Part shown: piece after piece, positions 1 to 59,852 of the stretch
Layout: the number at the start of each line of letters is the position of its first letter
How positions within the stretch are numbered: position 1 is the stretch's first letter
NCBI RefSeq assembly: GCF_030013205.1
Contig: NZ_CP122648.1
DNA length: 64,000 nucleotides
Direction: 5' to 3' (one strand)
Source of the DNA: Escherichia coli
GTDB taxonomy: Bacteria; Pseudomonadota; Gammaproteobacteria; Enterobacterales; Enterobacteriaceae
The notes under the pieces: model-generated
Told to the model about the DNA's origin: nothing
The model's database searches: none
What the model saw: the letters and a program-made list of their open reading frames with translations, nothing else
Position numbers and translations under genes: made by a program

Positions 1-860
1 ATACCGAACATCAGGATTGCGACCACAATCGTACCGATGATGATCCCCCGATGTACGGCTTTGCTGTCTTTATAAGAGATACAGCGCACCGCAGTATGCG
101 GCAGGCCAATCACGCCAAAACACACCAGCACCCAGAACGACGTCATAAACGCAGGCGACAGAATATCGTCAGCGCCTTGTGGCGTAACCAGTTGCGGATC
201 GATGGTTTGCAGCGTCTCTACCGCATTGCTTAAGCCGCCAGCAGCATGGACCACGCCAATAAGCAGCACAATGGTGCCAATCAGCATCACCAGCCCTTGC
301 ATGGTGTCGTTCAGCACGCTGGCGCGAAAGCCACCAAAGGCGGTGTAGAGCGCAATGCTGATGCCAAAAATCAGCAAACCTGTTTCATAAGGAATACCCG
401 CCGCAGTTTCCAGCAGGCGCGCACCGCCGATAAACTGCACGGTCATCGCACCAACGAACGCAACCAGCAAACTCAAACTCGCCAGCCACACCAGCAGACG
501 ACTCTGGTAGCGGGCAAATAGCATATCGTTCAGCGTCACCGCATTGTAGCGGCGCGCAAGAATCGCGAACTTCTTGCCGAGAATACCGAGCGAAAGCCAG
601 ACCGCAGGAAGCTGAATCATCGCCAGCAATACCCAACCCAGGCCGTATTTATAAGCAGCGCCAGGCCCGCCGATAAACGAACTGGCACTGATATAGGTCG
701 CGGTGAGCGTCATCGCTAGCACAATACCGCCCATAGAGCGGCTACCGAGGAAATACTCATTAAGGAAGGTGCCGGTGCTCCGTTTACGCATCGCATAAAC
801 AGAGATACCGAACACCACCACCAGATAGGCGACCAGCGGTAGAATCACTTCAAGCTGCAT
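1..860 (-). CDS. panF: sodium/pantothenate symporter PanF, N-terminal part (gene continues past window start)
   Basis: Minus-strand reading frame runs off the window edge; translation from the ATG at 860 reads MQLEVILPLVAYLVVVFGISVYAMRKRSTG..., recognised as PanF. The start overlaps the yhdT stop by 11 nt, as recalled for K-12. Confidence 0.9.
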   Translation of the reverse strand, partial: MQLEVILPLVAYLVVVFGISVYAMRKRSTGTFLNEYFLGSRSMGGIVLAMTLTATYISASSFIGGPGAAYKYGLGWVLLAMIQLPAVWLSLGILGKKFAILARRYNAVTLNDMLFARYQSRLLVWLASLSLLVAFVGAMTVQFIGGARLLETAAGIPYETGLLIFGISIALYTAFGGFRASVLNDTMQGLVMLIGTIVLLIGVVHAAGGLSNAVETLQTIDPQLVTPQGADDILSPAFMTSFWVLVCFGVIGLPHTAVRCISYKDSKAVHRGIIIGTIVVAILMFG

Positions 861-1092
861 CGTCATCCTCCAGTGGGATATCGCGATAGATAAATTTCAC
901 CATCGCCCAGCACAGTCCAATAAACAGCAGCGGCGTCAGGATGCAGGCCATCTCAAACCAGCGCGGAAAGCCGGTAAAACCGGGGGCAACGCCAGGTAAG
1001 TAAGCGGCTACTAACCATACCGCCAGATACAAAAGGGTCAGCCCCAGCGCCCAGCGCGCCTCTTTATGGGCCTGAACAAAACGAGTGTCCAC
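850..1092 (-). CDS. yhdT: small inner-membrane protein YhdT (DUF997)
   Basis: The track ORF 850..1110 is trimmed to a GTG at 1092, which sits 9 nt downstream of a perfect AGGAGG (1102-1107, minus strand); this gives 80 aa, the length recalled for K-12 YhdT. Hydrophobic two-helix protein. Confidence 0.8.
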   Translation of the reverse strand: MDTRFVQAHKEARWALGLTLLYLAVWLVAAYLPGVAPGFTGFPRWFEMACILTPLLFIGLCWAMVKFIYRDIPLEDDDAA

Positions 1093-1184
1093 GGAAGGGG
1101 TCCTCCTCATGGGGGGATACGAGAAACGGGCAATTCTACGGCAACTCTTCAGGCAGGGAAAATAATCTGACAGAAAATTGCCGT

Positions 1185-2141
1185 TCAGTGCTGCTGCAAA
1201 AAGTCTTCAATGTCAGCCAGTGAGGATATCCCTTCCATCGGACCTTGCCGCATTACGGCGAGCGCGCCGCTGGCATTTGCATATTGCAGTGCCTTATGTG
1301 CCGGGAAACCGGATAAGAAAAGAGTGATAAACGTTGCGCCAAAGCAGTCGCCTGCACCCGTTGGATCGATAATTTCGATATCGTGGCCTGTAACATGCTG
1401 GGCGTGTAATGTACCGTTTTTAAGCTTGTAATAGCTGGCCCCACGCTGGGCGCGTTTTATCGCCACATGTTTTACGCCGCCGTGGAGAAGATCGCTAACA
1501 ATCTGTTCTTCTGACAGATTTTTGTGACGCGCGAAGAAAGGGAGTTCGCTTTCGCTGGGGATAAAAATATCCGTATATTCAATCAAATAATCGAGAGCCT
1601 GCGCCATTTCAGGAATACTCAGCATCTCTTTGCGAATATTGGGATCGAAAGAAACGGTGCCGCCAGCCGATTTGATCGTCGTTATTGCTTTACGCATGAC
1701 ATCGATCATGCGAAATGAGAACAATGATGAGCCCACAATATGCAGATGGTTACACTGTTTTAGCAGATCCTTATCAATGTGCTCAGCAGTAAACAAACCG
1801 CAGGCGCTGTTAGGGATATTAAAGACGAAATCCCGCTGCTGGGGATTTTGATAACTCACGAATGCCGTACCTGTTACGGCATTGTTCATAACATGGATCC
1901 CATCGGTAATGACACCTTCATGACGGAGACGCTCTATAATGAGTCGGCCAAAATCATCATTACCAACACATCCGAAGAAGATGGCCCGATGGGACAGTTT
2001 TGCCACCTGAGCAGCAAAAATTGCTGGTGCACCGCTGGGAAATGGCCCGATAAACTCCCCAGGCTGAGTGAATTTTTGATGTGGGTTGCGGGACAAAAAC
2101 TCGGCCAGCAATTCGCCCATAGAGCAGATAGTTATTGTCAC
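1185..2141 (-). CDS. PfkB-family carbohydrate kinase, KdgK-like (islet kinase A)
   Basis: ORF 1185..2195; contains the PfkB signature DPTGAGDCFGATF and an N-terminal IGE..E / GPFPSGAPAIF region; paralogous to the kinase at 7676-8638. Start chosen as the GTG at 2141 preceded by AGAGGGG; the upstream ATG at 2195 would overlap the regulator gene by 44 nt. Confidence 0.8.
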   Translation of the reverse strand: MTITICSMGELLAEFLSRNPHQKFTQPGEFIGPFPSGAPAIFAAQVAKLSHRAIFFGCVGNDDFGRLIIERLRHEGVITDGIHVMNNAVTGTAFVSYQNPQQRDFVFNIPNSACGLFTAEHIDKDLLKQCNHLHIVGSSLFSFRMIDVMRKAITTIKSAGGTVSFDPNIRKEMLSIPEMAQALDYLIEYTDIFIPSESELPFFARHKNLSEEQIVSDLLHGGVKHVAIKRAQRGASYYKLKNGTLHAQHVTGHDIEIIDPTGAGDCFGATFITLFLSGFPAHKALQYANASGALAVMRQGPMEGISSLADIEDFLQQH

Positions 2142-2151
2142 AAAACCCCTC

Positions 2152-2982
2152 TCATTCCTGAAGCCTCTCGCGATTGGACCAAGTAAAGCACTCATTACTG
2201 GTATAAAGGATAACGAAATCAGCCGACTGCAATTGTTGCTGATATTGTTCGTTAATGCTGCGGCTGACGATCACATTTTCTGCCTGATGCAAATGCCCGA
2301 TAGCAGCCGTTGATGGCGCAGGATCGGCGGCAACGATAACTGTCTTATTCTGGGCATGATCGAAACAGAGCTGCCAGGCAGCGGCAAGTCTGGGAACGTT
2401 GATATTTAAAGTACCATCAGCATCCAGATGGCTGATTTCCAGAATGCTGTGTGTAATGGTGAAATGCTGAAGTGCCTGTTCGAGCGGTTTTCCGGCCAGT
2501 GCGGTGTCGGGGCGCAGCATTTCACTGCCAGCCAGTATTATTTCGCCATCAATAAACTGATTTGCCAGCAGCGCATGTTCGGGATCGTTGGTGATCAGAC
2601 GCAGTTTTTTCACTTCGCTGAGCAAGGGAATGATCTTACGACAGATTGTCCCATGTCCAAGAAATAGCGTGTCACGATCCCGAATTAACCGTGCGCAATG
2701 TCGTGCTATTTCCATTTGTTGTGCCAGAGACAATGGCGCGATCGGTTGTATCGCTTCTGGTTCAGAGGAGAGTGGTGTCGCAATAGCACCGCCAAATGAT
2801 CGCTTTAAATATCCCTGTTGCTCCAGATAACTGAGATCGCCGCGGATCGTCACGCCAGAGACACCAAGTTGCGCAGATAAGTCATCAACTTTGATTTCAC
2901 CCTGGGCGGCAACAATTTCTGCAATTTTTAATCTGCGTTTCAGTAGGTTAGACGATTTTCTCGGCACGTTAACACTCTTCAT
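2152..2982 (-). CDS. DeoR-family transcriptional regulator (HTH plus sugar-phosphate-binding domain)
   Basis: 276-aa ORF; N-terminal segment RLKIAEIVAAQGEIKVDDLSAQLGVSGVTIRGDLSYLEQQGYLKRSFGGA resembles the DeoR/GlpR/AgaR HTH; co-directional with and immediately upstream of kinase A. Confidence 0.8.
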   Translation of the reverse strand: MKSVNVPRKSSNLLKRRLKIAEIVAAQGEIKVDDLSAQLGVSGVTIRGDLSYLEQQGYLKRSFGGAIATPLSSEPEAIQPIAPLSLAQQMEIARHCARLIRDRDTLFLGHGTICRKIIPLLSEVKKLRLITNDPEHALLANQFIDGEIILAGSEMLRPDTALAGKPLEQALQHFTITHSILEISHLDADGTLNINVPRLAAAWQLCFDHAQNKTVIVAADPAPSTAAIGHLHQAENVIVSRSINEQYQQQLQSADFVILYTSNECFTWSNRERLQE

Positions 2983-4178
<1,196 letters not shown>

Positions 4179-4213
4179 GACGTTGTACCCTACAAAAACA
4201 ATGAGGATTGTTT

Positions 4214-5104
4214 ATGAAAAATATTAAATTACTTGGTTCAGCTATGTTGGTGAGCCTGGCATTGTTCTCGCCAAGTTCGTTGGCAAAAGAGTATAAAATT
4301 GGTGCGTCATTATTAACACAGCAACATCCTTTCTATATCGATCTTGCGAATGCCATGAAAGAAGAGGCAAAAAAAGACAATGTCAATTTAAGTGTCTCTA
4401 TTGCCAATCAGGATTTAAACAAACAACTTTCTGATGTTGAGGATTTTATTACTAAAAAAGTGGATGCCATTATTATCTCTCCGGTCGATTCGAAAGGCGT
4501 CCAGGCGGCGATAATTAAAGCCGATAAGGCCGGTATTCCCGTTATCACCGTCGACGTTGCTGCGGAAGGCGTTCCGGTCGTATCGCACGTTGCGACCGAT
4601 AACTATGCGGGAGGCGTTGAAGCAGGCAAGTTAATGGGCAAACTTTTGAATGGTAAAGGTACTGTAGCCATTATTTCTTATCCGGCACTACAATCGGTGG
4701 TTGCGCGCGTTGATGGTTTTAAGAAAGGGTTAAGCGAGACACCGGATATTAGAATTGTTGCTGAACAGCCTGGTATTACGCGGGCTGAAGCGTTAACGAC
4801 TGCGCAAAACATTATGCAGGCCAACGCCAACCTGAATGGTCTGTTTGGCTTTGGTGATGATGCGGCGTTGGCAGCGGTTATCGCAGCGAAATCTGCGCAT
4901 AACGACAACATCAAAATCATTGGTTTTGACGGCATGAAAGAAGCGCGTGATGCCGTTGACAGTGAAAAAACGTTTGCGGCCGTGATTCGGCAATATCCCG
5001 ATCAAATGGGTGCTAAAGCCATTGATGCCGCTGTTGATCACCTCAATGGTAAACCGGTAGAAAAAATGATCCCGGTACAACCCGGCGTTTATACAGGTAA
5101 ATAG
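4214..5104 (+). CDS. periplasmic sugar-binding protein of an ABC importer (RbsB-like)
   Basis: ORF 4208..5104 trimmed to the ATG at 4214 (GAGGA RBS at 4203-4207); N-terminal signal peptide MKNIKLLGSAMLVSLALFSPSSLA; overall resemblance to ribose-binding protein. Confidence 0.8.
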   Translation: MKNIKLLGSAMLVSLALFSPSSLAKEYKIGASLLTQQHPFYIDLANAMKEEAKKDNVNLSVSIANQDLNKQLSDVEDFITKKVDAIIISPVDSKGVQAAIIKADKAGIPVITVDVAAEGVPVVSHVATDNYAGGVEAGKLMGKLLNGKGTVAIISYPALQSVVARVDGFKKGLSETPDIRIVAEQPGITRAEALTTAQNIMQANANLNGLFGFGDDAALAAVIAAKSAHNDNIKIIGFDGMKEARDAVDSEKTFAAVIRQYPDQMGAKAIDAAVDHLNGKPVEKMIPVQPGVYTGK

Positions 5105-5164
5105 TAAACATCTTCACCTCACAACAAAACGTTATTGGCGTTTTGTTGTGACACCGAGGTCATT

Positions 5165-6664
5165 ATGACGGATGTTATTCTTGATGTTTCGCATATTGCG
5201 AAGACATTTGGTCATGTTCAGGCATTAAAAGATATTACCCTCTCTTTACGTAAAGGGCGGGTGCATACTTTATTAGGCGAGAATGGTGCCGGTAAATCGA
5301 CATTAATGAAAATACTCGCTGGTGTTTATCCGCCAACCCAGGGAACGATAATACTACGTGGTGAAACCATCACCATTAATAATCCGCAGCATTCTCGCCA
5401 GTTAGGGATTGCGATTATTTTTCAGGAACTGAGCCTGAGTAATAATATGACCGTGGCGGAAAATATTTATGCCAATAATGAACCGCGACGTTTTGGCATT
5501 ATTAACGATAAAAAAATGCTCGCAGATTGCCAGAATCTCCTCGCGGAACTGGGCATCCCACTGGATCCGCTGGAAATGGTCGGCAATATGTCGATGGCAC
5601 ATAGGCAACTGGTAGAAATTGCCAAAGCCTTAAGCTATGCAGCGGATGTCGTGATTATGGATGAACCGACATCTTCGCTAAGTGATAATGAAGCAGAGAT
5701 TCTGTTTAACATTATTGAAAAATTAAAGCAGCGAGGCTGTGCGGTTATTTATATCTCTCATCGCATGGATGAAATTATGCGGATTTCAGATGATATTTCG
5801 GTGATCCGCGACGGTGAGTATATCGCCACGCATGAAAAGAAAAACAGTGATATCCAGCATTTGATTGCCCAAATGGTTGGTCGGGAAATGAAAAATATTT
5901 GGCCAGCACGTCTTGGGGAAAAACCGGATGAAAATGTTCCTGCAAAACTGGAAGTAAAAAATCTTTCCCATCCTTCGCTTTTTAAAGAGGTCAGTTTCGC
6001 TGTGCGTCCGGGGGAGGTCCTCGGATTTTTTGGCCTGGTGGGGGCCGGGCGTTCCGATGTGATGAAGGCGCTATTTGGCCTCGTTTCGTATCAGGGGACT
6101 GTGTTGATTGATGGTAAGGAAGTCAGGATCGCTAATCCCAAACAGGCTATTGATCATGGCATTGCTTTTGTGACCGAAAACCGCAAGGAAGAAGGGTTAG
6201 TGCTGATGCACGACGTCAATATGAACACGCACCATGTGGCGTTTCAATATAACGCTTCGCGGATGGGACTCATTAATCACCGACAAGAAGAGGCGAAGAC
6301 GCTGCAATCAATTGCCAGAATGAACACTAAAGTGAGTTCTGTACATCAGGCAGTGGGAGCGCTGAGCGGCGGTAATCAACAGAAAATCGTGTTATCGAAG
6401 TGGCTGGAGAAAACTCCGCGTATTTTATTGCTCGATGAGCCAACGCGCGGAGTGGATGTCGGCGCAAAATTTGAAATCTATAACGTGATACGTCAACTGG
6501 CTGCGGCAGGGACAGCAATTATTCTGGTGTCCTCTGAACTGCCAGAAGTCATGGCACTTAGCGATCGTCTGGTGGTAATGCGTAATAAAACGATTGCCGA
6601 TATTTATTCATGTGAAAATTTAACGCAGACACAGGTAATGACCGCTGCAACAGGAGTACGTTAA
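5165..6664 (+). CDS. sugar ABC transporter ATP-binding protein with two fused ABC domains (RbsA/MglA-like)
   Basis: ORF 5135..6664 trimmed to the ATG at 5165 (GAGGT upstream). First Walker A GENGAGKST; second domain has LSGGNQQK signature and LLLDEPTRGVD Walker B. Confidence 0.85.
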   Translation: MTDVILDVSHIAKTFGHVQALKDITLSLRKGRVHTLLGENGAGKSTLMKILAGVYPPTQGTIILRGETITINNPQHSRQLGIAIIFQELSLSNNMTVAENIYANNEPRRFGIINDKKMLADCQNLLAELGIPLDPLEMVGNMSMAHRQLVEIAKALSYAADVVIMDEPTSSLSDNEAEILFNIIEKLKQRGCAVIYISHRMDEIMRISDDISVIRDGEYIATHEKKNSDIQHLIAQMVGREMKNIWPARLGEKPDENVPAKLEVKNLSHPSLFKEVSFAVRPGEVLGFFGLVGAGRSDVMKALFGLVSYQGTVLIDGKEVRIANPKQAIDHGIAFVTENRKEEGLVLMHDVNMNTHHVAFQYNASRMGLINHRQEEAKTLQSIARMNTKVSSVHQAVGALSGGNQQKIVLSKWLEKTPRILLLDEPTRGVDVGAKFEIYNVIRQLAAAGTAIILVSSELPEVMALSDRLVVMRNKTIADIYSCENLTQTQVMTAATGVR

Positions 6665-7654
6665 ATGACAGAGAAAACTCTTGCCAGTCCGAAACCTTCG
6701 GAAATTCCCATTGCAAATAATTTTAAAAAAGTCTTCAGGCAATATGGCGGTATCCTCAGTGGAATGGTGGTGTTAATCATTCTGTTCAGTTTTATTAATG
6801 ACAGTTTTTTTACCGCCAATAACATTACTAATATTATTCTTCAGGTTTCGATAATTGCAATTACCGCCTATGGAATGACTTATGTACTTTTGCTTGGCGA
6901 TATTGATTTATCGGTTGGTTCAACCATTGCATTGATTGGCACATTTGCTGCGCTTGGGGCTTCATGGGGAATTCCATTTATTTTATTGGTCCCATTATCC
7001 ATTATTGCAGCACTGGCTCTGGGGATGATAAATGGTGGCTTGACGGCTATAGCGGGGATCCCGTCGTTTATTGTCACCGTTGCTACTATGGGGATCTTCC
7101 GTGGTATCGCTTATATAGTGACCGATGGTATGCCCATCATGATTAAAGATGATGCCTTTCTGGCGCTGGGGAATGAAGAATTTCTCTATATACCTATTCC
7201 TATCTGGATATTAATCATCTTATTGCTGATTAACCACTTCATTCTTACTAAAACAACCTTTGGACGAAAAATTTATATCACTGGTGGTAATAAAGAAGCG
7301 GCAGTTTATTCAGGGATAAATGTCACCCGCTTGAAAATTAAAGTCTTTATGATTACAGCCGTGCTGGCAGGTATCAGCGGGATGATCCTCGCGTCACGCC
7401 TCTATTCCGGGCAACCGAATTCCGCGTTGAGCTACGAACTGGATGCTATTGCTGCGGCTGTACTGGGAGGCACCAGCCTGAACGGCGGCTATGGAACCGT
7501 GGTGGGGACGGTGATCGGCGCATTAACCATCGGCGTTATTAATAATGGCATGAACTTAATGAATGTTCCCTATTTTTACCAGATGGTGGTTAAAGGATTA
7601 GTCATTCTTGTAGCCGTTTATTTTGACGTAAGAAATAAAAGAAAACGCAGCTAA
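6665..7654 (+). CDS. sugar ABC transporter permease (RbsC-like, single membrane component)
   Basis: 329-aa highly hydrophobic ORF starting 1 nt after the ATPase stop; consistent with a monosaccharide ABC permease. Confidence 0.85.
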   Translation: MTEKTLASPKPSEIPIANNFKKVFRQYGGILSGMVVLIILFSFINDSFFTANNITNIILQVSIIAITAYGMTYVLLLGDIDLSVGSTIALIGTFAALGASWGIPFILLVPLSIIAALALGMINGGLTAIAGIPSFIVTVATMGIFRGIAYIVTDGMPIMIKDDAFLALGNEEFLYIPIPIWILIILLLINHFILTKTTFGRKIYITGGNKEAAVYSGINVTRLKIKVFMITAVLAGISGMILASRLYSGQPNSALSYELDAIAAAVLGGTSLNGGYGTVVGTVIGALTIGVINNGMNLMNVPYFYQMVVKGLVILVAVYFDVRNKRKRS

Positions 7655-7675
7655 TCATTTCAAGGAATTAATCAT

Positions 7676-8638
7676 ATGAGTAAGGTCTTCACAATTGGAG
7701 AAATTCTGGTTGAAATTATGGCGAGTAAAATCGGCCAGCCATTTGATCAACCAGGTATCTGGAACGGCCCTTATCCCAGTGGCGCACCCGCTATTTTTAT
7801 CGACCAGGTGACACGTCTTGGCGTTCCGTGCGGCATCATTAGCTGTGTGGGGAATGATGGCTTTGGTGATATTAATATACATCGTCTGGCTGCTGACGGT
7901 GTGGATATCAGGGGGATTTCAGTCTTACCTTTGGAAGCTACCGGGAGTGCCTTTGTTACTTATCATAACTCTGGCGATCGCGATTTTATTTTTAATATCA
8001 AGAATGCCGCTTGCGGTAAATTATCGGCGCAGCATGTTGATGAAAATATTCTGAAGGACTGTACCCATTTTCATATTATGGGTTCATCCCTGTTTTCATT
8101 CCATATGGTAGACGCAGTAAAGAAAGCGGTAACCATTGTAAAAGAGAATGGTGGCGTTATTTCTTTTGACCCTAATATTCGGAAAGAGATGCTCGATATT
8201 CCAGAAATGCGTGACGCCCTCCACTTTGTTCTTGAGTTAACAGATATCTATATGCCCAGCGAGGGAGAAGTGTTGCTCTTGTCGCCACACTCGACACCGG
8301 AGCGTGCAATCGCTGGTTTTCTTGAAGAAGGTGTTAAAGAGGTGATTGTGAAGCGCGGCAATCAAGGTGCCAGTTACTACTCCGCGAATGAGCAGTTTCA
8401 TGTTGAGAGCTATCCGGTGGAAGAAGTTGACCCGACTGGTGCGGGAGACTGTTTTGGTGGCGCGTGGATTGCCTGCCGCCAGCTAGGGTTTGACGCCCAT
8501 CGGGCATTACAATATGCCAACGCCTGCGGTGCACTGGCGGTAACCCGACGTGGCCCAATGGAGGGAACGTCTCGCCTTGCGGAAATCGAAGCGTTCATCC
8601 AGCGCCATGACATGTCCATTCGGGAAGCAGCACAATGA
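7676..8638 (+). CDS. PfkB-family carbohydrate kinase, KdgK-like (islet kinase B)
   Basis: 320-aa ORF; N-terminus MSKVFTIGEILVEIMA and GPYPSGAPAIF, C-terminal DPTGAGDCFGG signature; shares long identical stretches with kinase A (e.g. SFDPNIRKEML.IPEM, MGSSLFSF). Confidence 0.85.
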   Translation: MSKVFTIGEILVEIMASKIGQPFDQPGIWNGPYPSGAPAIFIDQVTRLGVPCGIISCVGNDGFGDINIHRLAADGVDIRGISVLPLEATGSAFVTYHNSGDRDFIFNIKNAACGKLSAQHVDENILKDCTHFHIMGSSLFSFHMVDAVKKAVTIVKENGGVISFDPNIRKEMLDIPEMRDALHFVLELTDIYMPSEGEVLLLSPHSTPERAIAGFLEEGVKEVIVKRGNQGASYYSANEQFHVESYPVEEVDPTGAGDCFGGAWIACRQLGFDAHRALQYANACGALAVTRRGPMEGTSRLAEIEAFIQRHDMSIREAAQ

Positions 8639-9681
8639 AAAACGAAATTTGGTCGTGGATTGGCGATCTCTCGCAGGTTGCCGGAATTAAACACTATGAG
8701 TTACGTAGTGGCAGAGCAAAGGGGACAGAAGCGTTTGATGTCCGTACTGGTGCGGGACTGGCATTTACGGTGGTAAAAGATCGCGCGCTGGATATTGCAT
8801 GGGCCAGCTACAAGGACACTGCGCTCTCTTTTATCACCCCCAACGGCATTGTCGCCCCCGCTTTTTTTGAGTCTCATGGCAACGGGTTTTTACGTAGCTT
8901 CTACGCGGGGTTACTGACTACCTGCGGACTTAGCTACATTGGCACGCCCTGTGAGGATGACGGAGAAACGCTGGGGTTACACGGGCGTTTGGCTGCGACT
9001 CCAGCAGAAGAGGTGGGGTATCGCACAGAACGGACCGACGACGGCATTGAATTTGTCATCAATGGCAAAGTACGGGAAACACGATTGTTCGGTGAAAATC
9101 TGACGCTGGAAAGGACCATTCGCTGCCGTTATGGCGAAAATGTGCTGCGCATTGAAGACAAGGTGACTAATCATGGTTTCACCCGCCAGCCGCTGCAAAT
9201 TCTTTATCACTTTAATTACGGCTGGCCTTTATTATCGCCACAGGCAGAAATCTTGCTGTCGGCTAAAAGCGTAACGCCACGAACCCCGCATGCGGCGGAA
9301 GGGTTAACCAGTCATCTGGAGATTTGTACCCCACAGCCCGGTTTTGACGAGCAAGTTTACTATCTCACGTTGAATAGCGACAGTCAGGGGATGAGTAAAG
9401 TTGCGCTGGTGAACGCCGAACTGGGGTGGGGAATTTACGAGAAATTCGACACCATGCAGCTACCCAACTTTATCCAGTGGAAAAATTTAGGCGCGGGTGA
9501 ATATGTTATGGGGCTGGAGGTCAGCAATAGTTTTCCTGACGGTCGTGATAAAGAACGAGCGCAGGGGCGTCTGCCCTTTATAGAGCCAGGGGAAACAAAG
9601 ACATACTGCTTTGAGCTGGGAATTGTTGATGGCGATGCTGAAATTAGCGCGTTGAAAGCGGAAATTGCAAGCTACCGTTAG
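8635..9681 (+). CDS. galactose-mutarotase-like (aldose-1-epimerase superfamily, possibly DUF4432) protein of unknown function
   Basis: 348-aa ORF whose ATG overlaps the kinase B stop (ATGA). Contains a YHFNYGWP motif; the family assignment is from pattern memory and is not verified. Confidence 0.6.
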   Translation: MKNEIWSWIGDLSQVAGIKHYELRSGRAKGTEAFDVRTGAGLAFTVVKDRALDIAWASYKDTALSFITPNGIVAPAFFESHGNGFLRSFYAGLLTTCGLSYIGTPCEDDGETLGLHGRLAATPAEEVGYRTERTDDGIEFVINGKVRETRLFGENLTLERTIRCRYGENVLRIEDKVTNHGFTRQPLQILYHFNYGWPLLSPQAEILLSAKSVTPRTPHAAEGLTSHLEICTPQPGFDEQVYYLTLNSDSQGMSKVALVNAELGWGIYEKFDTMQLPNFIQWKNLGAGEYVMGLEVSNSFPDGRDKERAQGRLPFIEPGETKTYCFELGIVDGDAEISALKAEIASYR

Positions 9682-9697
9682 CTAACGGCAATAAAAA

Positions 9698-9724
9698 CGC
9701 CGGGCAGCGTTAACAGGCCCGGCG
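9698..9724. terminator. GC-rich hairpin in the convergent gap between the islet and accC
   Basis: Inverted repeat CGCCGGGC / GCCCGGCG around a short loop, lying between the stop of the mutarotase-like gene (9681) and the stop of accC (9773). Confidence 0.5.
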
Positions 9725-32414: not shown

Positions 32415-33428
<1,014 letters not shown>

Positions 33429-33445
33429 TTGATTAGCGGATAATA

Positions 33446-34155
33446 AAAAACCGGAGCACAGACTCCGGTTTTTTGTTGTGCACAGAAAACCCCCAGCTAG
33501 GCTGGGGGTTCCGGAAAGCTTTCAGCTTTGAGCCAGTTATTAAAACCCCTTTTGATTTGTTAAAACACCTTGCGGTCTGGCAACTGCAAGTGTCAAACAA
33601 GAAATCAAAAGGGGGTCCCAATGGGGAACGAAAAGAGCTTAGCGCACACCCGATGGAACTGTAAATATCACATAGTTTTTGCGCCAAAATACCGAAGACA
33701 GGTGTTCTACAGAGAGAAGCGTAGAGCAATAGGCAGTATTTTGAGAAAGCTGTGTGAGTGGAAAAGCGTACGGATTCTGGAAGCTGAATGCTGTGCAGAT
33801 CATATCCATATGCTTGTGGAGATCCCGCCCAAAATGAGCGTATCCGGGTTTATGGGATATCTGAAAGGGAAAAGCAGTCTGATGCTTTACGAGCAGTTTG
33901 GTGATTTGAAATTCAAATACAGGAACAGGGAGTTCTGGTGCAGAGGGTACTACGTCGATACAGTGGGTAAGAACACGGCGAAGATACAGGATTACATAAA
34001 GCACCAGCTTGAAGAGGATAAAATGGGAGAGCAGTTATCGATTCCCTATCCGGGCAGCCCGTTTACGGGCCGTAAGTAACGAAGTTGGATGCAAATGTCA
34101 GATCGTGTGCGCCTGTTAGGGCGCGGCTGGTAAGAGAGCCTTATAGGCGCATTTG
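33446..34155 (+). mobile_element. IS200-family insertion sequence (IS200/IS605 family, about 0.71 kb)
   Basis: Encodes a 152-aa Y1 (HuH) transposase closely matching Salmonella IS200 TnpA as I recall it. Left-end hairpin with T-run (33451-33474) and internal hairpin CCCCCAGC-tag-GCTGGGGG (33490-33508). The convergent mdh-degS gap is recalled as about 60 bp in K-12 and is 774 bp here. Boundaries are inferred, give or take about 15 bp. Confidence 0.75.
33621..34079 (+). CDS. tnpA: IS200 transposase TnpA (Y1 HuH transposase)
   Basis: ORF 33570..34079 trimmed to MGNEKSLAHTRWNCKYHIVFAPKYRRQVFY...; HuH motif (HIHMLVEIPP) and catalytic-Tyr region present. Confidence 0.85.
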   Translation: MGNEKSLAHTRWNCKYHIVFAPKYRRQVFYREKRRAIGSILRKLCEWKSVRILEAECCADHIHMLVEIPPKMSVSGFMGYLKGKSSLMLYEQFGDLKFKYRNREFWCRGYYVDTVGKNTAKIQDYIKHQLEEDKMGEQLSIPYPGSPFTGRK

Positions 34156-34186
34156 AAAAACCTCCGGCTATGCCGGAGGATATTTA
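34156..34186 (-). terminator. rho-independent terminator of degS (probably the native bidirectional mdh/degS terminator)
   Basis: CCTCCGGC-tat-GCCGGAGG with a T-run on the minus strand just downstream of the degS stop. Confidence 0.75.
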
Positions 34187-34202
34187 TTTTTGAGCGCACG
34201 AC

Positions 34203-35270
34203 TTAATTGGTTGCCGGATATTCCTGAATGGTGACCTGCAGCGTTAACTGCTTATCATCACGCATCACTACAACCGGGATCACCGAGCCAGGGCGAATTT
34301 CCGCCACCTGATCCATCGTCTCCAGAGCAGAGATGGCCGGTTTGTTATCCACCGAAATAATCAAATCGTTGACCTGAATACCCGCATTCGCCGCCGGGCC
34401 GTCAGGTGACACTTCATTAACCACGATCCCTTGCAGTTGATCTATACCACCGCCCTGCGCGTGCAGTGGTGCGATCTCACGTCCGCCGATACCAATGTAG
34501 CCGCGGATCACGCGACCATCGCGGATCAGCTTATCCATAATTTTGGTTGCTAACTGGAAAGGAATCGCAAAGCCGATGCCTTCCGGCGTTTCGCCATCGT
34601 TACTCTTATCAAACGACAGCGTGTTAATGCCCATCAGTTCGCCCAGCGAGTTCACCAGCGCGCCGCCAGAGTTACCGTGGTTAATGGAAGCATCTGTTTG
34701 CAGGAAGTTTTGCCGCCCGGTCGGGTTCAGACCAATTCGACCCGTGGCACTAATAATCCCCTGGGTAATGGTCTGCCCGAGGTTGTATGGGTTACCGATC
34801 GCCAGTACCACGTCACCAATGTGCGGTACGCGACGTGCATTGATTGGAATGGTAGGTAAACCGCCAGTGGCATTAATTTTAAGTACCGCCAGATCGGTTA
34901 GAGAGTCAGATCCCACCAGCAATGCTTCAAATACACGTCCATCCTGTAAGGCGACGATGATCTGATCGGCGTCGTTGATGACGTGTTTATTGGTGATGAT
35001 ATAACCGCGTTGATCCATGATTACACCGGATCCCAGGGTGCGGATCTCAAGCTGGTTGTGAGAGTTGGTGTTCAAACCACGGTTGTAAACGTTAACCACC
35101 GCTGGCGCGGCGCGGCGAACCGCCAGATTATAGCTGGCAGGCGTCTCATCGGTACTGTCAAATTGCGGAGTGGAAAGCGGGTTAAGGCTGCGCAGCGAAG
35201 GCATGGCAACCAGCAGAATAGCGCCGACAATTAATCCAATCGCAACGGAACGTAAGAGCTTCACAAACAT
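34203..35270 (-). CDS. degS: periplasmic serine endoprotease DegS
   Basis: 355-aa ORF with an N-terminal anchor, trypsin-like domain (GNSGGAL) and one PDZ domain. Confidence 0.95.
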   Translation of the reverse strand: MFVKLLRSVAIGLIVGAILLVAMPSLRSLNPLSTPQFDSTDETPASYNLAVRRAAPAVVNVYNRGLNTNSHNQLEIRTLGSGVIMDQRGYIITNKHVINDADQIIVALQDGRVFEALLVGSDSLTDLAVLKINATGGLPTIPINARRVPHIGDVVLAIGNPYNLGQTITQGIISATGRIGLNPTGRQNFLQTDASINHGNSGGALVNSLGELMGINTLSFDKSNDGETPEGIGFAIPFQLATKIMDKLIRDGRVIRGYIGIGGREIAPLHAQGGGIDQLQGIVVNEVSPDGPAANAGIQVNDLIISVDNKPAISALETMDQVAEIRPGSVIPVVVMRDDKQLTLQVTIQEYPATN

Positions 35271-59740: not shown

Positions 59741-59852
59741 CCCCGGCTAGACCGGGGTGCGCGAATACTGCGCCAACACCAGGGAAATCTTGGCTGCGCC
59801 GTAAATTATTATGATGAGTTACAAGGGCACAGCACTGTTTTTCAGGCCGCAC
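59732..59852 (-). ncRNA. arcZ: small regulatory RNA ArcZ (SraH/RyhA)
   Basis: Minus-strand sequence GTGCGGCCTGAAAAACAGTGCTGTGCCCTTGTAACTCATCATAATAATTTACGGCGCAGCCAAGATTTCCCTGGTGTTGGCGCAGTATTCGCGCACCCCGGTCTAGCCGGGGTCATTTTTT matches ArcZ as I recall it; its terminator overlaps the arcB stop codon. Confidence 0.85.

Follow-up and report, generated by a model that had tools for sequence, protein, structure and literature searches.

The mdh–degS locus

The window analysed here is a 64-kb stretch of Escherichia coli DNA in which the malate dehydrogenase gene mdh (32490–33428, plus strand; stop codon 33426–33428), placed from the list of open reading frames and the RefSeq annotation of NZ_CP028192.1, converges with degS (34203–35270, minus strand; stop codon 34203–34205). 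The spacer between the two genes is 774 bp long, against 62 bp in the K-12 derivative DH5alpha, a difference of 712 bp; the initial annotation had given a gap of about 60 bp in K-12. An uninterrupted spacer of 62 bp is also found in strain PRO_A-1490, and both of these empty sites read ...AAAAAACCGGAGCACAGACTCCGGTTTTTTGTTTTGAGCGCAC...; the reference strains do not share the 774-bp spacer.

The spacer holds one meaningful open reading frame, tnpA (33621–34079, plus strand), whose 152-aa product is identified by profile and structure matches as a transposase of the Y1 (HUH) type. It matches the Pfam model Y1_Tnp (PF01797; 4.4e-38, model positions 2–121 of 121) and the NCBIfam equivalog transpos_IS200 (NF033573; 147.7 bits, cutoff 55), and its relatives in the PDB are the IS200/IS605 transposases 2ec2, 2f4f, 2a6m, 2vjv and 2xm3, with E values of 1e-16 to 1e-19 against the last three. 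Alignment to the solved TnpA structures places the HUH motif at H61-I-H63, and the predicted catalytic tyrosine, Y125, aligns together with Q129 with the tyrosine helix of these proteins. The 90% cluster that contains TnpA includes Salmonella enterica IS200F transposases, one of which is identical at 144 of 152 positions (95%), and the earlier description of the protein as nearly identical to Salmonella IS200 TnpA is borne out. A Yersinia pestis protein in the same cluster is 95% identical over 136 aligned residues and is annotated merely as an IS200/IS605 family transposase.

TnpA is identical to RefSeq WP_000526135.1 ('IS200/IS605-like element IS200C family transposase'), and it is from this RefSeq/PGAP label that we take the subtype name IS200C. 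E. coli CFSAN018748 (NZ_CP028192.1), from swine in Denmark, matches the window region with 100% identity, and there RefSeq gives the order mdh, tnpA (IS200C family), degS; the element is thus already catalogued and annotated in identical RefSeq genomes and is not itself new. The region aligns to IS200 elements, as expected from the proposal that a copy of about 0.71 kb occupies the convergent mdh–degS gap, and by its sequence the segment 33478–34188 is a complete, intact IS200C element (IS200/IS605 family, IS200 group). tnpA is the sole open reading frame with a family match in this 711-bp element, there is no space for tnpB, and a search of the 64-kb window found no IS200 copies besides the one at mdh–degS. 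IS200 has been described as nearly dormant (PMC4513863), on which account the mdh–degS copy is at most potentially active.

Two other regions of the window are noted here. The ArcZ sRNA (59745–59852, minus strand; Rfam RF00081, 120.8 bits, full length) is an ordinary core-genome feature. Positions 1–9700 have a GC content of 46.6%, compared to 51.2% for the whole window, and by reading of the translations encode proteins that resemble a DeoR-type regulator, a class II aldolase, two PfkB-type kinases, an epimerase-like protein, and the binding protein, ATPase and permease of a sugar ABC transporter; this segment is probably an accessory carbohydrate-utilisation cluster.

Ends of the element and insertion junctions

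The empty sites of DH5alpha and PRO_A-1490 have the junction ...CTCCGGTTTTTTGTT|TTGAGC. The left flank in the window agrees with them through GTT (33475–33477), and the right flank resumes with TTTGAGC. Copies at 22 other E. coli loci, 12 of which came from a first query and 10 from a query with the IS only, share exactly GTGCACAG...GGAGGATATTTATT, nearly always with a length of 711 bp, and outside these limits their sequences diverge. The empty-site alignment and the 22 other loci together place IS200C at 33478–34188 (plus strand; 711 bp, GTGCACAG...ATATTTATT), immediately 3' of the last TT of the terminator T-tract. The terminal sequences GTGCACAG... and ...ATATTTATT are not inverted repeats, and in strains L007–L009 the 711-bp unit cleanly splits GTT|TTGAGC without a target duplication.

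In the lineage of the window there is an extra T at 34189 that brings the insert to 712 bp. This residue is absent from every empty site, and no empty site with five T residues was found in 5,425 genomes, the best match being 99% identical with a 1-nt gap. Either slippage in the T-run or 1-nt imprecise processing of the right end could account for it. The ends to be used in the design of PCR typing or 3' RACE are 33478 and 34188.

Hairpins and terminators

A native, bidirectional intrinsic terminator common to mdh and degS (33445–33477) occurs without change in both DH5alpha and PRO_A-1490, where the site is empty. It is composed of an A-run, a stem CCGGAG (33451–33456) / CTCCGG (33463–33468), and T6GTT (33469–33477), with A6 immediately before CCGGAG and T6 immediately after CTCCGG, and folds at -21.8 kcal/mol on the plus strand (z = -7.0) and -17.4 kcal/mol on the minus strand (z = -5.8). 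A consensus terminator scan did not list the native mdh terminator, and we think that the A6 and T6 flanks lengthen the stem and consume the T-tract; despite this miss, the native nature of the hairpin is settled by the folding and by the comparison with the empty sites.

The element has a hairpin near each of its ends. At the left is a perfect inverted repeat (33488–33510, plus strand; AACCCCCAGC-TAG-GCTGGGGGTT) that folds at -18.7 to -22.1 kcal/mol and is the first helix of the Rfam STnc490 match described below. Nucleotides 12–34 of Salmonella IS200 act as a rho-independent terminator in both directions and stop impinging transcription (Ellis 2015, PMC4513863; PMC5435999), and 33488–33510 corresponds to this hairpin; it is presumed also to be the left-end hairpin bound by TnpA. 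At the right, the subterminal hairpin (34161–34179, plus strand; CCTCCGGC-TAT-GCCGGAGG) is preceded by GAAAAA and followed by a 9-nt tail, ATATTTATT (34180–34188), that closes the element. The consensus scan scores it as terminator-like on both the plus and the minus strand, with folds of -15.9 and -15.5 kcal/mol.

Right ends of the IS200 group were aligned for 19 elements, drawn from Enterobacterales, Vibrio, Sutterella, Desulfovibrio and Bacillota. All 152 cells of this alignment are paired (100%), with compensatory changes through which the third pair of the hairpin is seen as AU, UA, CG and GC, and no shuffled or slid control approaches this pairing. The left hairpin (CCCCCAGC-TAG-GCTGGGGG) differs from the right one by paired changes, the two have the common pattern CC-CC-GC / GC-GG-GG, and GAAAA precedes both; by this comparison of their sequences they are versions of each other.

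These assignments exchange the roles that the initial annotation had given to the two hairpins, with the element at 33446–34155, its left-end hairpin at 33451–33474, and the native terminator at 34156–34186. Folding confirms that hairpins exist at both places, each resembles an intrinsic terminator, and the span of 710 bp suits the size of an IS200. However, the supposed left-end hairpin and its T-tract are host DNA, found base for base in the empty sites, and the supposed native terminator is the right end of the IS, which leaves no trace in the empty sites, ends the copies at all 22 other, unrelated E. coli loci, and occurs in elements of other phyla too. Nor does the published IS200 terminator hairpin fall at 33451–33474, mapping instead to 33488–33510. 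The earlier span is displaced by about 32 bp leftward relative to the aligned ends, and the arrangement as a whole, to which we attach next to no probability, is already refuted by the empty-site alignment.

The 5' untranslated region

[quoted passage not shown] The Rfam match lies on the tnpA-sense strand. STnc490/art200 was described by Ellis et al. 2015 as an RNA antisense to the tnpA 5'UTR (PMC4513863), and the orientation in which STnc490 was deposited may be that of the 5'UTR rather than that of art200. Going by the descriptions in the literature (Ellis 2015, 2017), the antisense sRNA art200 would lie opposite roughly 33540–33629. Matches to Ysr202 (26 bits, gathering score 315), MicX and anti-hemB covered only the terminator hairpins and were rejected as chance matches.

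Distribution in E. coli genomes

IS200-like DNA is present in 3,096 of 5,426 complete E. coli genomes, with near-full-length copies in 2,063, and the genomes that carry it have a median of one IS200 place and a maximum of 35. The mdh–degS spacer contains an IS200 in 26 of the 5,426 genomes and is uninterrupted in 5,376. Eighteen of the 26 carriers are 100% identical to the window and all of these come from pigs, with O139:H1 and 'ETEC' strains among them; the remaining eight come from humans, differ in their flanking haplotypes and include ST69 O15:H18. In the pig lineage, which is that of the window's host (CFSAN018748, O139:H1 strains, EC556/571/581 and 'ETEC' strains), there are 19–33 IS200 places per genome, whereas Ellis 2015 quotes 2.9 copies per E. 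coli genome (PMC4513863). This looks like a lineage-specific expansion of IS200C in a pig-associated lineage, by an element that is usually called dormant.

The carriers are not uniform at the locus. Three Mdh alleles are found among those examined (WP_001315036.1, WP_001309792.1 and WP_001521411.1), and the right junction has five T residues in the pig lineage and four in L007–L009 and ECE204, as called from inspected junctions or from a row spanning 880 bases. The occupied positions that were compared are 699–1409 in L007, 699–1409 in L008 and L009, and 33478–34189 in the window. Over 711 positions, the IS of FDAARGOS_1276 (L007) has 29 differences from the window copy but only four from an IS that a chicken strain carries at its sseA locus, and its flanks are about 1% different from those of the window.

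The identical position of the element in all of the carriers could reflect one ancestral insertion that spread among the 26 genomes by recombination, in which case the IS of FDAARGOS_1276 would have arisen by gene conversion and there would be no hotspot; E. coli does recombine, and conversion donors are available in the 17 IS200 places of FDAARGOS_1276. We regard a single origin as fairly unlikely, however, given the presence of at least three mdh protein alleles among the carriers, the junctions with five and with four T residues, the distance of the FDAARGOS_1276 IS from the window copy and its closeness to the sseA-locus IS, with flanks only about 1% away from those of the window, and the empty site in a genome that has the same Mdh protein (WP_001315036.1) as a carrier. 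Two IS200 subtypes about 4% apart at one nucleotide probably mark a recurrent hotspot, with gene conversion the less likely alternative to repeated insertion. The suggestion that the copy is a stable strain marker holds for the pig lineage, where it is useful, but not in general, as several haplotypes and two subtypes share the position. It is a rare but imperfect lineage marker, whose presence alone is no proof of common descent.

On many E. coli plasmids IS200 is found as fragments and not as whole copies. In O157:H7 and related strains, plasmids of about 92 kb have a 141-bp right-end fragment with 92% identity (e.g. NZ_CP017441.1, 35747–35887), and plasmids of 100–195 kb, several of them from poultry, have a 337-bp left-end fragment (e.g. 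NZ_CP135958.1, 15251–15587); in two of the listed records the 337-bp match runs into an IS1 transposase gene.

Insertion behind terminators

By eye, all 22 of the sampled E. coli sites besides mdh–degS are directly 3' of a GC-rich hairpin and a T-tract ending in TT. Examples are the sites after yceK, mlaA, trpS, ccmH, plaP, dgcZ, gndA, sseA, pheP, deoD, guaA, clpA, yfeX, htpX and emrB, and at the annotated sites tnpA points in the same direction as the upstream gene whose terminator the hairpin forms. TT is immediately 5' of the left end in all 23 E. coli copies, and at the sampled sites the copies begin 5–10 nt beyond the GC stem and lie without exception on the strand of the T-tract. The target in the left flank is TGTT, TATT or TTTT, and the element itself closes with TATT on the right.

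The query for the first 12 E. coli sites contained the T-rich flank and may have biased that sample, whereas the later 10 sites were recovered with the IS alone. A strict test (a perfect stem of at least 5 bp with at least 3 GC pairs, a loop of 3–8 nt and a T-rich tail) is passed by seven of these 10 sites (P about 6e-11); all 10 are a hairpin with a T-run by eye, the three failures having a bulge or a long loop. In the window, 0.28% of positions overall and 1.7% of those after TT pass the same test as background. A TnpA search of genome contigs gave, among the matches listed, a sample of 80 loci that is unbiased by flanks (the best match among those listed, in Dickeya/Citrobacter, is 93%). 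Copies in other genera were taken from it by protein similarity only, from Edwardsiella, Budvicia, Erwinia, two Vibrio species, Sutterella, and several Bacillota MAGs and isolates. Seven of 13 cross-species sites pass the strict test (P about 8e-10), and most of the copies that fail have a degraded left end. Insertion of IS200 directly 3' of a terminator T-tract is thus a general rule, followed at all of the sampled E. coli sites and by most cross-species copies.

A tendency of this kind has been reported before. Odaert et al. (J Bacteriol 180:178, 1998) reportedly found that the IS1541 sites in Y. pestis resemble rho-independent terminators at 8 of 14 loci, and suggested these stem-loops as hot spots. 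In Yersinia, IS1541 disrupts the pheL-pheA attenuator region (PMC3082878), and a recent preprint reads upstream terminators as favouring IS persistence (10.1101/2025.07.22.666184). What is added here is resolution to the nucleotide.

The reading in that preprint bears on the question of whether there is any targeting at all, in that IS200 could insert at any T-rich site with only the harmless copies behind terminators surviving selection. Intergenic positions behind terminators are indeed neutral, and the target TNTT is very common, with 9,237 positions that follow TT on the two strands of the window. Selection of this sort would not be expected to produce the nucleotide-level precision that is seen, in which every copy starts after a terminal TT within a short range of the stem and on the T-tract strand, nor to place two IS200 subtypes at the identical nucleotide in mdh–degS; none of the sampled copies lies in neutral AT-rich intergenic DNA of another kind, and the pattern is repeated across phyla. 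Survival without targeting accordingly seems to us an unlikely explanation, and we favour a target choice by the element itself.

Relationship to other elements

The right end of IS200 (34161–34188) has the same architecture as the target terminator (33451–33477), a GC-rich hairpin and a T-rich tail that ends in TT, and insertion therefore recreates a terminator-like, target-like structure at the downstream edge of the element. In Enterobacter sp. [quoted passage not shown] Repeated use of one target, or of the right end itself, would be expected to give this arrangement.

The closest comparison is with IS200 of Salmonella enterica (IS200F and related elements; Lam and Roth 1983; Beuzon and Casadesus 1997, 1999; Ellis et al. 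2015, 2017). The Salmonella elements are similar in size (707–711 bp), contain tnpA only and encode a 152-aa TnpA that is 95% identical, and they have the same terminator hairpin at nucleotides 12–34 of the left end, a stem-loop in the 5'UTR that hides the Shine-Dalgarno sequence, and the art200/STnc490 region. The window copy differs in being of the E. coli subtype that RefSeq calls IS200C, and riboregulation by the E. coli copies would be a putative function. IS1541 (IS200G) of Y. pestis and Y. pseudotuberculosis is about 87.5% identical in DNA across all 711 bp, with the TnpA identity over 136 aligned residues given above, and has a high copy number; it belongs to another host and subtype, and the E. 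coli association with terminators holds at every sampled site and is resolved to the nucleotide after the T-tract.

IS608 of Helicobacter pylori and ISDra2 of Deinococcus radiodurans are more distant members of the same Y1 HUH fold family (2a6m, 2vjv, 2xm3). They too lack terminal inverted repeats, generate no target duplication, have subterminal hairpins and a left end that abuts a short target, and show a bias to the lagging-strand template. Unlike IS200C, which is without tnpB and has the target TNTT by a terminator hairpin, they possess tnpB, their targets are TTAC and TTGAT, and their hairpins differ from those of IS200C, which are perfect, GC-rich, and double as transcription terminators. 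The niche itself has an analogue in the bacterial class C (IIC) group II introns, which home to the 3' side of intrinsic-terminator hairpins, where insertion does the host no harm and the DNA becomes single-stranded or structured as it is replicated. Their mechanism, a ribozyme with a reverse transcriptase, is unrelated and they have no protein homology to IS200, and the analogy is one of niche only.

A proposed model for insertion and its probable consequences

We are highly confident in the overall account of the locus, in which IS200C lies at 33478–34188 on the 3' side of the T6GTT of the mdh/degS terminator, brings its own structured ends, and leaves the mdh terminator in place. Members of the IS200/IS605 family insert with the left end always 3' of a short specific target that is recognised by a guide 5' of the hairpin foot, have no inverted repeats or target duplications, and prefer the lagging-strand template (PMC5027513; PMC3333891). 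The element at mdh–degS has tnpA in the same orientation as mdh and no target duplication. By analogy with IS608 and ISDra2, it would most likely have arrived as a single-stranded circle, which the Y1 transposase would have joined to the lagging-strand template on the 3' side of the T-rich target. The target would have been read, as in IS608, by the A-rich GAAAA found on the 5' side of the foot of each end hairpin. Pairing between an A-rich guide and a T-rich target is the natural inference from the related systems, and the GAAAA guide and T-tract target vary too little across species to show covariation. The GC skew of the window plus strand is +0.039, and the tnpA-sense top strand would therefore be the leading-strand sequence, i.e. 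the lagging-strand template, in the orientation of the family model; a single copy is too few to establish a bias.

The insertion would thereby have supplied the locus with the left-end terminator hairpin (33488–33510), the right-end hairpin (34161–34179), and a 5'UTR that is predicted to occlude the ribosome-binding site and to encode art200 or 5'UTR-derived sRNAs. Two hairpins in series, that of the host terminator and then that of the left end, would insulate tnpA from read-through from mdh. It had been proposed that the copy could alter formation of the mdh 3' end; mdh retains the hairpin and the first 9 nt of the T-tract, and because these are intact its 3'-end formation is probably unaltered. 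The corrected anatomy shifts the prediction to degS, as the gene whose 3' end may change. In the degS direction the IS right-end hairpin comes 24 nt past the stop codon and is followed by TTTTT (34160–34156; TTTTTC on the minus strand), and beyond it come, in order, the left-end hairpin, with TTTTCTGTG after it on the minus strand, and the native terminator. Transcripts of degS would reach the right-end hairpin and its U-run before the native terminator. degS is separated from the terminator that it shares with mdh, and its 3' end may change.

Why the element should favour these sites is a matter on which we offer one tentative proposal. IS200-group transposases could recognise terminators as structured targets, since a terminator mimics the right end of the element itself, with the point of insertion set by the pairing of the A-rich guide to the T-tract together with the hairpin; we consider this possible, although on balance it is doubtful. 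Neither this mechanism nor a rule at nucleotide resolution is established in the literature consulted, and the mimicry is put forward as a hypothesis only. For the mdh–degS locus itself the insertion is of little consequence, being a catalogued IS in a neutral intergenic position, and its placement at a terminator T-tract is a tidy illustration of target choice. If mimicry of the right end is correct, IS200 would be a terminator-specific insertion sequence, and this would account both for insertions at the same nucleotide, as in mdh–degS, and for abutting copies.
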